Counted from the stretch's first letter, positions 10,001-52,149 are shown. The stretch: 64,000 nucleotides of DNA from Isurus oxyrinchus (GCA_026770705.1 JANJGN010000009.1:166222001-166286000), one strand, 5' to 3'. Notes: generated by a model from the letters alone, not told the origin. Translations and numbers: made by a program.

Positions 10001-11923
10001 ACAATGGTTACAGTATAGATGGAGGCCATTTGACCAGTCATTTCCGACTAGCTCTCTGCAATAGCAATTCGGCTAGGTCTACTCCTCTCACATTGTCCCC
10101 TTGTTCCTGCAAATATTGTCACTTCCCATAATTATCCAATTTTCTTTTCAAAGCTGCAATTGAATCTGTCTCCTCCACATCTATAGTCATAATGATCCAG
10201 ATCCTAACCACTGGCTGTGTAAAAAATGTTTCTTCCTTGTGTTAACATTGGTTCTTTTCTCAGTCACCTTAAATCAGTAACCACTTGTTCTTGACCATTC
10301 TCCTAATGATTTTGACAACCTCTATCAAACGTACTCTTAATCTTCTCTTCAAGCACAACAGCTCCAGTTTTTTCAACCTATTCATGTAACTCAAGTTTCT
10401 CATTCCTGGAACCATCTGGTAAATCTTATCTGTACCCTTTCTAATGCCTTTGTATCCTTCCTATAGTGTGGTGCTCAGAATTGGAAATTTGACTCCAGTT
10501 GAGGTTGAATCAATATTTTGTAGATTGGTTCATCATAAATTCCTTGCTTTTATGATCAGTATGTCTCTATTTATGAAGGCCAGGATCCCGTATGCCTTTT
10601 AACCAACCTGCCCTGTCACTTTCAACAATTTGTGCACATACACACCCAGATTTCTCTGCACCTACATCCCCTTCAGAATTGTACTCTTTACATTATATTG
10701 CCTCTCCTTGTTCTTTGTACCAAAATGTATCACTTCACACTTCTCTGCATTAAATTTTAGCTGCTAGGTGTTCTCCTAATCCACCAAACTCTCTATGTCC
10801 TCTTGATATCTATCACTGCCAACCTCACAGTTCTCAATACTTCCAAGCTTTGTATCACCTGCAAATGTTGAAATTATGCCCGGTCTCACCCAACTCTAGG
10901 TCATTGATCTAGATCAGGAAAAGCAGTGGGGCAAATACAGGCTCCAGGGAAACTGACCATATGCTTTCCTCCAGACTGGAAAACAACCATTCACCAGGAA
11001 TCTCTTTTACCTGTCGTTCAGCCAACTTCATATCCATGCTTCTACTGTCCCTTTTATTCGATAGGCTTCAATTATGATGTCACGTTCTAATGTTGTATTT
11101 TATCAAAAGCCTTTAGGAGGTCCACGCACACCACATCAAACTCATTACCCTGAACAACCTGCACTGTTACCTCATCAAAAAATATAATTAAATTAGTTTA
11201 ACATGATTAAACTAGTTCTGTCGAAGGGTCATGAAGACTCGAAACGTCAACTCTTTTCTTCTCCGCCGATGTTGCCAGACCTGCTGAGTTTTTCCAGGTA
11301 ATTCTGTTTTTGTTTAACATGATTATTGTTTAACAAGTCTGTGCCAACTTTCCTGACTTAATCCACATAAAGTGACTTACAGCACCCAACAACAGATAGA
11401 ACAGCTGAATCCCATCCATTGACAATTGCTGTGTAAATTATAGCAGGTTAAATATCTACAACACAAGGTCTACTCACACAGTTTATGTGCCACTGAATTA
11501 TTGCCCATAACCAGCAACTGGCTCTGAGAATAACATAAATTACAGGTGGAAGCTGCAATAAATGTAAGTTAAGATGTAGTTTTCTCTTTTGTTTGGTAAA
11601 CTGCGAGATTACTTACATCCAAGTAGTTAATCATTGGTTCACTTGTCTCCAGAGTTAAGGGTTGTTCAAACTTTGAGCAGGGATCATATGGATGATTCTT
11701 CAGGAAGTCTTCCAGCAACCCTTTCTCCTGAAGGACGTCACGGGCTGACTTACCCTTAAACAAGGGCACTCTGTAAAGAAACAAAATACGTTGCAAATGT
11801 CATCACATTTTCTGTACCTTGCGGACATGTTATTCATTTCCTCGTTTGTCTTGTGTTGATTTCCTACCTGATCAGACATTCAGAGAGCTGAATGCAAGCG
11901 AGGGTGATGAGCAGCCTCTTCAT
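4009..11923 (-). CDS. pga: Pepsinogen (pepsin A-like A1 aspartic protease), copy 1, 9 exons, 385 aa, apparently intact
   Basis: Exons (minus): 11868-11923, 11617-11770, 9355-9472, 7898-8016, 7002-7201, 5494-5613, 5070-5214, 4258-4356, 4009-4155. Sizes 56/154/118/119/200/120/145/99/147 match pepsin-family exon architecture; all introns GT-AG; frame open. Signal [16 protein letters not shown]; prosegment [28 protein letters not shown]; catalytic [10 protein letters not shown] and IDTGTSLL; flap [21 protein letters not shown]; three Cys pairs. PGA orthology versus other pepsinogens or cathepsin E is inferred, not tested. Confidence 0.93.
6085..6820 (-). mobile_element. Fragmented CR1 3' remnants in intron 5
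   Basis: [21 protein letters not shown] and VNLWHSLPQ...[12 protein letters not shown] pieces, present in all four copies. Confidence 0.65.
7355..7560 (-). mobile_element. Degenerate tRNA-derived SINE (SacSINE/DeuSINE-like) in intron 4
   Basis: Minus strand of the better-preserved homologues reads ctcagtggtagcactctgagtcagaaggttgcgagttcaa... (A/B-box-like head) followed by Deu-domain-like sequence. Homologues near 22050-22250, 44130-44330 and 63170-63370. Family assigned from memory of the consensus. Confidence 0.5.
8430..8875 (+). mobile_element. CR1 3' fragment in intron 3
   Basis: Decayed RT C-terminus plus 3' UTR with an (atgactct)-type tail. Homologues at about 23110-23560 and 45190-45640. 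Confidence 0.7.
11210..11311 (+). mobile_element. 102-bp Penelope terminal-repeat fragment with 14-bp target-site duplication
   Basis: Matches the 3' end of the larger Penelope copies. Flanked by gtttaacatgatta at 11196-11209 and 11312-11325. The site is empty in copies 2 and 3. Confidence 0.85.
11214..11252 (+). ncRNA. Minimal type-I hammerhead ribozyme-like motif
   Basis: agtt-CUGUCGA-a-gggtc(atgaa)gactc-GAAA-cg-UC-aact: stem I agtt/aact, 5-bp stem II, palindromic ACGT stem III, GUC cleavage triplet. Confidence 0.62.
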
Positions 11924-11986
11924 CTTGCCAGTTGGGTTGGTTTGGAGACTCTACAGAACTTAAAGTTTGGGGCCTGAGCAGTAACA

Positions 11987-50824: not shown

Positions 50825-52149
50825 ATGCAGCAAAAACTGTTCCTCTGACATGTCCTCCTTCTTCCTTAACCGAGGTTTTCCACCCACGGTCGTTGACAGG
50901 GCCCTCAACCGTGTCCGGCCCATCTCTTTCACATCCGCCCTCACGCCTTCTCCTCCCTCCCAGAAACATGATAGGGTCCCCCTTGTCCTCACTTATCTCC
51001 CCACCAGCCTCCGAATTCAAAGGATCATCCTCCACCATTTCCGCCAACTCCAGCATGATGCCACCACCAAACACATCTTCCCTTCACCCCCACTGTCGGC
51101 ATTCCGTAGGGATCATTCCCTCCGGGACACCCTGGTCCACTCCTCCATCACCCCCTACTCCTCAACCCCCTCCTATGGCACCACCCCATGCCCACGCAAA
51201 AGATGTAACACCTGCCCCTTCAGTTACTCTCTCCTCACCGTCCAAGGGCCCAAACACTCCTTTCAAGTGAAGCAGCATTTCACTTGCATTTCCCTGAACT
51301 TAGTCTACTGCATTCGTTGCTCCCAATGTGGTCTCCTCTACATTGGAGAGACCAAACGTAAACTGGGCGACCGCTTTGCAGAACACCTGCGGTCTGTCCG
51401 TAAGAATGACCCAAACCTCCCTGTCGCTTGCCATTTTAACACTCCACCCTGCTCTCTTGCCCACATGTCTGTCCTTGGCTTGCTGCATTGTTCCAGTGAA
51501 ACCCAACGCAAACTGGAGGAACAACACCTCATCTTCCGACTAGGCACCTTACAGCCTTCCGGTCTGAATATTGAGTTCAACAACTTTAGGTCTTGAGCTC
51601 CCTCCTCCATCCCCACCCCCTTTCTGTTTCCCCCCCTTCCTTTTGTTTTTTCCAATAAATTATATAGATTTTTCTTTTCCCACCTATTTCCATTATTTTA
51701 AAATATTTTTAAATCTTTTATGCTCCCCCCACCCCCACTAGAGCTGTACCTTGAGTGCCCTACCATCCATTCTTAATTAGCACATTCGTTTAGATAATAT
51801 CACCAACTTTAACTTTAACACCTATGTGTTCTTTTGTTCTTTTCTCTGTGACATTTTTGATGATCTGCTCCTATCACTGCTTGATGGTCCCTACAACCAC
51901 ACCACCCCCCTCCACTTCTCTCCCCCCACCCACCGCACCCCCCCCCCCCCCTCAACCACCCCCCACCCGCCACCTTAAACCAGCTTACATTTCACCCCTC
52001 TCCTTGGATTCATCTAGTTCTGTCGAAGGGTCATGAGGACTCAAAACGTCAACTCTTTTCTTCTCCGCCGATGCTGCCAGACCTGCTGAGTTTTTCCAGG
52101 TAATTCTGTTTTTGTTTTGGATTTCCAGCATCCGCACTTTTTTGTTTTT
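50825..52149 (+). mobile_element. Penelope-like retroelement, 5'-truncated, GIY-YIG domain intact
   Basis: ORF to 51596: VYCIRCSQCGLLYIGETKRKLGDRFAEHL...VACHFN...EEQHLIFRLGTLQPSGLN. Same insertion point as 14524. Confidence 0.93.
52016..52054 (+). ncRNA. Degenerate hammerhead-like motif
   Basis: GAAA core mutated to AAAA. Confidence 0.4.

Follow-up and report, generated by a model that had tools for sequence, protein, structure and literature searches.

A derived and family-wide U6 core in the terminal-repeat hammerhead motifs of a Penelope-like element from Isurus oxyrinchus, with a possible catalytic role

A 64-kb window of the Isurus oxyrinchus genome (GCA_026770705.1, JANJGN010000009.1:166222001-166286000) carries six minimal hammerhead ribozyme (min-HHR) motifs in which the core has U in place of A at position 6. 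This raises the question of whether U6 is a property of the Penelope-like element in whose terminal repeats (pLTRs) the motifs reside and, if so, what became of the ribozyme. The motifs are found at 11214..11252, 16130..16168, 41374..41412, 42667..42705 and 52016..52054 on the plus strand and at 42352..42390 on the minus strand, all coordinates being counted from the first nucleotide of the window. Judged from sequence, U6 is real, family-wide and derived, and the motif may have kept a catalytic role.

The order in each motif is AGUU of stem I, the core CUGUCGA, an extra A, stem II (GGGUC, loop AUGAG, GACUC), GAAA, CG, UC and the closing AACU of stem I. Inspection of the sequence confirmed both the positions and the layout given in a first-pass annotation of the window, as well as its assignment of the motifs to the min-HHRs of Penelope pLTRs. 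The structural features of min-HHRs were all present, namely stems I and II, the extra base after A9, the G10.1-C11.1 pair and the palindromic positions 15.2/16.2. GAAA and an NUH triplet were also present, with GAAA and GUC in the dominant form and GUU in older subfamilies. The core departed from the consensus CUGANGA through U6, the other ten core bases being present. Aside from U6, core and stems were intact in three of the six motifs: that at 11214, where only loop II is altered and the cut is predicted after 11248; that at 41374, which is the dominant genomic form with a cut predicted after 41408; and that at 42390(-), which lies on the same strand as its host aspartic protease gene. The motif at 42667 was seen to have a mismatch in stem II (GGUUC). 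Those at 16130 and 52016 belong to an older subfamily, the former having GGATTCAC upstream and being decayed (CAAA, G16.2>A), the latter reading AAAA on inspection through G12>A at a CpG. No hammerhead core was found on the opposite strand by inspection of the sequence. A covariance-model search with Rfam at E<=10 returned no hammerhead in the window nor in six control loci, four of which hold canonical A6 copies, and is uninformative on U6 because these controls equally gave none.

Copies of the motif were counted throughout the 4.98-Gb genome. The exact 37-mer with U6 occurred 54,482 times and its reversed control 0 times, while A, C or G replaced U6 in an otherwise unchanged context 297 times; U6 is found in at least 99.4% of same-context copies and the family consensus is U6, not A6. 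The first 100 listed of the 297 other copies consisted of 61 C, 26 A and 13 G, the spectrum that point mutations arising after insertion should give. Across four 200-kb blocks picked irrespective of the motif, 67 cores were recognisable with a fuzzy pattern, 45 of them U6, 20 A6 and 2 C6. The U6 lineage amounts to at least 67,000 copies when four disjoint patterns are summed. U6 was also dominant in the DNA contigs of a second organism, where 70,356 records showed no position-6 variant at 5% or more. As U6 is common to both organisms, the change from A6 probably predates their split. The first-pass annotation had attributed U6 to the source elements and not to decay after insertion, and this was upheld both by the share of U6 among same-context copies and by its occurrence in several subfamilies.

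A recently mobile lineage had been proposed as well, and the lineage is indeed young, with near-identical tandem units and a 926-codon frame encoding reverse transcriptase and GIY-YIG domains. At one locus (L001) three motifs are spaced 3.35 kb apart and the two intervening units align over their full length with one mismatch and two gaps; this arrangement is the tandem form of a Penelope-like element, with an open reading frame (ORF) set between two pLTRs (pLTR-ORF-pLTR). Within the 926-codon frame of this locus reverse transcriptase is followed by a C-terminal GIY-YIG, with YIDD and YIGET motifs present. Profile scores were E 7e-8 for RVT_1, above the cut-off, and E 9e-4 for GIY-YIG over residues 829-863, below the curated cut-off. 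Tandem pLTRs, inverted 5'-truncated copies and, for the optional tail of 30-40 nt, two clusters of 3' ends, all traits of the Penelope type, were found, and the element is putatively of the Poseidon clade.

Older subfamilies carry the canonical base. A pattern with A6 gave 10,055 matches, nearly all of them CUGAAGA or CUGAUGA in older flanks, and a pattern combining U6 with the older stem II (GAGUC) gave 7,467, mostly CUGUUGA. The class majorities of 92 copies formed a ladder leading from A6A7 through A6U7, U6U7 with GAGUC/GUU and U6U7 with GGGUC/GUC to two U6C7 subfamilies. Mean non-CpG divergence from the class majority was 9.5-11% in the A6 classes, 8.4% in U6U7, 5.3% in the 16130-type and 3.0% in the youngest U6C7, values that lean low as most of the copies were fetched by motif patterns. 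Because the series runs from A6 over U6U7 to U6C7, with canonical A6 in the older subfamilies, U6 is, on the copies compared, the derived state, reached by the steps CUGAAGA/CUGAUGA, CUGUUGA and CUGUCGA. In a FastTree phylogeny that included position 6 all 70 U6 copies formed one clade with a support of 0.78. With positions 6 and 7 masked, the free tree from IQ-TREE needed three label changes, and the tree constrained to one U6 clade scored 6.4 log units higher than the free tree and was not rejected (p-AU 0.66); under the same masking the 45 youngest U6 copies formed a clade with 99/97 support. These trees are compatible with a single origin of U6. An A6 side branch also carries GGGUC and GUC, with only 439 pattern matches (including L039, L043, L050 and L251-L270), and either parallel change or recombination would account for this.

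Constraint on the fold after the change to U6 was evaluated by setting the majority sequence of 19 young U6C7 copies against that of 9 old U6U7 copies. In the upstream noncoding pLTR 74 of 334 sites differed (22%), and in the motif 5 of 39. The five motif changes, all of them on tolerated sites, were U to C at both N7 and H17, A-U to G-U in stem II and a change at each of two bases in loop II. With hammerhead rules tolerating roughly one third of single changes, five random changes would all fall on tolerated sites with P = 0.003-0.007; both junction changes lie at free positions (3/78 pairs, by arithmetic). The replacement of GUU by GUC is a move toward the preferred triplet. In contigs, no invariant core position had a variant at 5% or more among the rows listed. 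That every one of the five changes since U6 fell on a tolerated site suggests that the hammerhead fold is still constrained. Stem changes among the class majorities were one-sided only, namely A-U to G-U in stem II and AGCU to AGUU against AACU in stem I, and no two-sided compensatory change was found among these majorities.

The ends of the insertions bear on which RNA is copied. In the four 200-kb blocks, 46 young-anchor copies were examined for their 5' ends, of which 19 lay at -5..+6, counted from the base that opens stem I, although up to four of these may be another upstream variant and inverted pairs were counted twice. Of the remaining ends 2 lay at +7..+30, 0 at +31..+41, 4 past +41 and 21 further upstream, the predicted cut being after +35 from the first base of stem I. 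The 3' ends fell at +99..+108 or +135..+143 in 25 of 26 young hits, and the 100-nt insertion at 11214 is the shortest product from stem I to the first 3' end. Genome-wide, junctions close to the cut were few and scattered in both families, the young U6 family having 620 matches without the GAAA side; in 30 of these the upstream match run was distributed over 0-4 nt (8, 2, 7, 9 and 4), mostly in inversions. A junction spike at the cut site was rejected as a means of discriminating A6 from U6, no spike being present in either family. Insertions often start at the edge of stem I, and no start was seen at the predicted cut. From this we infer that the template is uncut RNA and that stem I marks either its beginning or the point where reverse transcription stops. 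Uncut copying would not separate an active from a dead ribozyme, since the active ribozyme of the Anolis carolinensis Poseidon element PAc is likewise copied uncut (PMC11167929).

The reading we favour, with no more than middling confidence, is that the motif is a slowed hammerhead whose cutting is gated by dimer formation or by the protein of the element, cleavage itself being a prediction. Replacement of A6 by U in the source elements of this Penelope lineage would have slowed the pLTR hammerhead. Transcripts would start, or reverse transcription would stop, at the edge of stem I, yielding unit-length RNA with one motif per end, and the two motifs of such a transcript could pair through the ACGU palindrome. 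Uncut RNA would then be the template on which reverse transcription begins, in the tail and some 100 or 140 nt downstream of stem I. Were the 3' motif to cut rapidly after GUC, the start of reverse transcription would be parted from the ORF-bearing RNA, and a core change that slows cutting may for this reason have been tolerated or favoured. Residual cutting, for instance in the trimming of read-through or tandem precursors, would keep the other core bases under selection.

Several points weigh against a motif that cuts. Conservation of the ten core bases, taken by themselves, falls short of significance (P 0.08 under the pLTR rate and 0.25 under the local rate), and the class majorities rest on just 9 and 19 copies. 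In the 66 nt downstream of the motif 7 sites differ between the old and young U6 classes, and a nearby 30-nt window, also downstream, equals the motif in conservation, with 1 of 30 sites differing, so that the constraint may reflect protein binding and not catalysis. The old A6 family is also without a cut-site spike (522 GAAA-less vs 13,079 intact). Mutating one or two bases of the CUGA turn left a type III hammerhead with low activity and without rescue, except for a C3-G8 swap (PMC9901934), and Penelope-like clades without hammerheads amplify well, the Naiads reaching tens of thousands of copies (PMC8557442). The region appears constrained in a hammerhead-like pattern, which protein recognition of the same fold could also yield.

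Much of this would agree with a ribozyme that has been dead since A6U, its fold and nearby sequence being kept as a protein-binding, transcript-start or reverse-transcription signal, and we regard this as a serious possibility without leaning towards it. The low activity of CUGA-turn mutants, the abundance of the Naiads and the conservation of the downstream sequence all speak for it, as does the clustering of insertion 5' ends at stem I and not at the cut. Ribozyme-dead templates of the Anolis Poseidon moreover insert normally in vitro (PMC11167929), and the A6 sister lineage with the same GGGUC/GUC is small by pattern matches. However, the changes made after U6 obey catalytic rules, in that N7 and H17 change, H17 stays non-G, and no change touches the ten invariant bases, G10.1-C11.1 or the ACGU palindrome. 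Natural A6C forms, furthermore, retain activity (PMC3088659, PMC7151607).

It is improbable, in our estimate, that U6 is a compensated variant which, in the sequence around it, cuts roughly as efficiently as A6, either by breaking an inactive zipper or by a shift in metal preference. In nearest-neighbour secondary-structure estimates on 39-nt monomers, an A6 revertant in the young background was predicted to pair UGACG with CGUCA at -11.3 kcal/mol with an open fraction of 0.000, against -7.3 kcal/mol and 0.034 for U6, and A6C does move preference to Mn2+ (PMC7151607). In the U7/GUU background where U6 arose, however, the predicted open fraction dropped from 0.033 to 0.007. The core zipper is a normal one, as published canonical min-HHRs of Acropora, Ixodes and sea urchin share the CUGACGA...CGUC arrangement, and CUGA mutants remained unrescued in pairwise mutagenesis (PMC9901934). 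The probability of stem II base pairs was 0.97 in the isolated motif and 0.02 once flanks of 40 nt upstream and 36 nt downstream were added; in the presence of flanks most classes, whether A6 or U6, were predicted to adopt folds other than the hammerhead stems. An alternative fold with U6-A13 and C7-G12 was rejected (probability <=0.02). That U6 reflects decay after insertion, an assembly error or a quirk of this locus, which is a fourfold segmental duplication with two of the six motifs being duplicates, has next to no probability and is refuted by the genome-wide count, the spectrum at position 6 and the dominance of U6 in the second organism.

A bolder form of the slowed-hammerhead reading, which we consider unlikely but worth stating, is that the fixed natural A6U core of this dominant retrotransposon lineage is a selected dimmer. 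It would provide more uncut templates and be entrenched by C7/C17, as reversion to A6 would zip the core shut. In that case position 6 would repeatedly serve to tune Penelope hammerheads, unnoticed by CUGANGA searches.

Min-HHRs are established in the pLTRs of metazoan Penelope-like elements, as is their pairing through the palindrome (Cervera and De la Pena 2014, PMC4209133). The present motifs share with these the short stem I, the core, the extra base before stem II, G10.1-C11.1 and GAAA, together with the palindromic CG at 15.2/16.2, the absence of stem III and the location in the pLTR. Unlike here, the cores aligned in the available part of that article carry A6 (CUGANGA or UUGANAA), the core variant being U3-A8; as the catalytic boxes were fixed in the descriptor used, it would likely miss a U6 family. 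Small Penelope-like hammerhead variants with a reduced stem III, a feature also of the present motifs, are reported to cleave as dimers (Lunse, Weinberg and Breaker, PMC5785218, via PMC6765202). In Anolis, the Poseidon hammerhead needs protein in order to cut, and it is the uncut RNA that serves for insertion (Frangieh et al. 2024, PMC11167929). PAc resembles the present element in its tandem pLTR-ORF-pLTR, in two internal starts of reverse transcription that give the tail, and in the use of uncut RNA as substrate with no junctions or reads at the cut site in the available part of that report. It differs in that its cutting with protein was demonstrated, cutting by the U6 element being predicted, and in that its ORF starts inside stem II whereas the long ORF here begins roughly 150 nt downstream of stem I.

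Variation at position 6 has been published in the form of A6C and of an insertion after A6 (PMC3088659). Changes at this position retard hammerheads markedly. The A6C hammerhead of phage Bcep176 is slow yet active, at <0.1 per minute (Perreault et al. 2011, PMC3088659), and A6C causes a large loss of activity in Mg2+ that is restored by Mn2+ (Naghdi et al. 2020, PMC7151607). Both Bcep176 and the present family have a natural substitution at position 6, slowness in Mg2+ being a property of Bcep176. The phage case is C, not U, and a single sequence, whereas U6 is fixed through successive high-copy subfamilies with A6 ancestors in the same genome. A literature search found no natural A6U and no position-6 variant of Penelope within its coverage, which left outside Lunse et al. 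2017 and one supplement of PMC4209133; the available part of bioRxiv 10.64898/2026.07.22.740005 held nothing on core variants. The role of Penelope hammerheads is debated, with views that they are needed for processing, dispensable or passengers (PMC8557442, PMC11167929). The ordered series from A6 to U6 within one genome offers matched natural ancestor and descendant RNAs. If U6 cuts, one more natural core variant is gained and descriptor searches undercount Penelope ribozymes. If it does not, a canonical Penelope-like lineage amplified massively after loss of catalysis with the fold kept.

Two features of the sequence around stem I were observed in the young subfamilies. The ATG in loop II opens an 18-codon frame (41391-41447). 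In the youngest subfamily the 25 nt 5' of stem I (41350-41373 in the window) became, stepwise, a partial copy of the 3' half of the motif (CAACUCUUU...GGACUCGAAA), which replaces a pyrimidine tract and AG of older subfamilies. This copy could be a competitor for stem II or a sign of a lost splice acceptor. No GT..AG joint that would point to an intron with its end at stem I, of the kind found in Drosophila virilis, was present among those listed for the contigs of three putative RNA runs.

Comparison with empty paralogous sites reduced the six motifs to four insertion events. The 100-nt insertion at 11214..11313 (+) runs from stem I as far as the first site of 3' ends, is bounded by a 12-bp target-site duplication, is missing from the paralogous segments, and falls, antisense to the gene, in between matched aspartic protease exons. 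The motifs at 42390(-) and 42667(+) form a single head-to-head insertion (42253..42767, in inverted orientation) with a 12-bp target-site duplication. A 5'-truncated insertion of the young subfamily at 40772..41524 (+) comprises the ORF end, pLTR and tail. A single insertion, copied by segmental duplication, accounts for both the motif at 16130 and that at 52016. The copy at 50831..52156 (+) is 5'-truncated and retains the ORF end, pLTR, motif and tail, and an open frame of 273 codons at 50775..51596 (+) represents the C-terminal part of the Penelope ORF, its GIY-YIG match (E 2.3e-4) being just below the Pfam cut-off. In the other copy, which ends at 16270, paralogue comparison showed the 3' part of the ORF and the pLTR at 14530..15534 (+) to be broken by a local inversion; a local inverted duplication of 99% identity, in which 14286-14724 is repeated inverted at 15562-15997, splits this copy.

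The shared origin of these two motifs changes how their loss of GAAA is to be read. The first-pass annotation held that GAAA was lost independently twice (CAAA and AAAA). This does not follow, since for duplicates of one insertion a shared G>A followed by A>C costs no more steps than two independent hits. G12 directly follows C11.1 and is hence within a CpG. Among copies exact everywhere else, 2,085 had it altered, and G>A accounts for 98 of the first 100 listed; such losses are therefore ordinary. The neighbouring CpG at 16.2 was altered in 3,259 copies, compared to 297 for the non-CpG position 6. Inserted copies decay at roughly the rate expected of CpG, and nothing suggests selection on them.

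The window as a whole is a fourfold tandem duplication with units of 15-22 kb. It contains four aspartic-protease gene copies (A1 propeptide and Asp, pepsinogen-like) in tandem on the minus strand that are 90-96% identical. Exon-bearing frames lie at 11572-11799, 7001-7201 and 5007-5270 in copy 1 of the array, at 27690-27917, 21688-21888 and 19707-19970 in copy 2, at 48202-48429, 43769-43969 and 40476-40739 in copy 3, and at 62810-63010 and 60807-61070 in copy 4, all on the minus strand. With regard to the element outside the window, a coral metatranscriptome run held 0.26 of the words of the query, possibly through contamination, and at locus L166 a run of telomere-type TTAGGG repeats directly adjoins the Penelope tail at one 5' junction.

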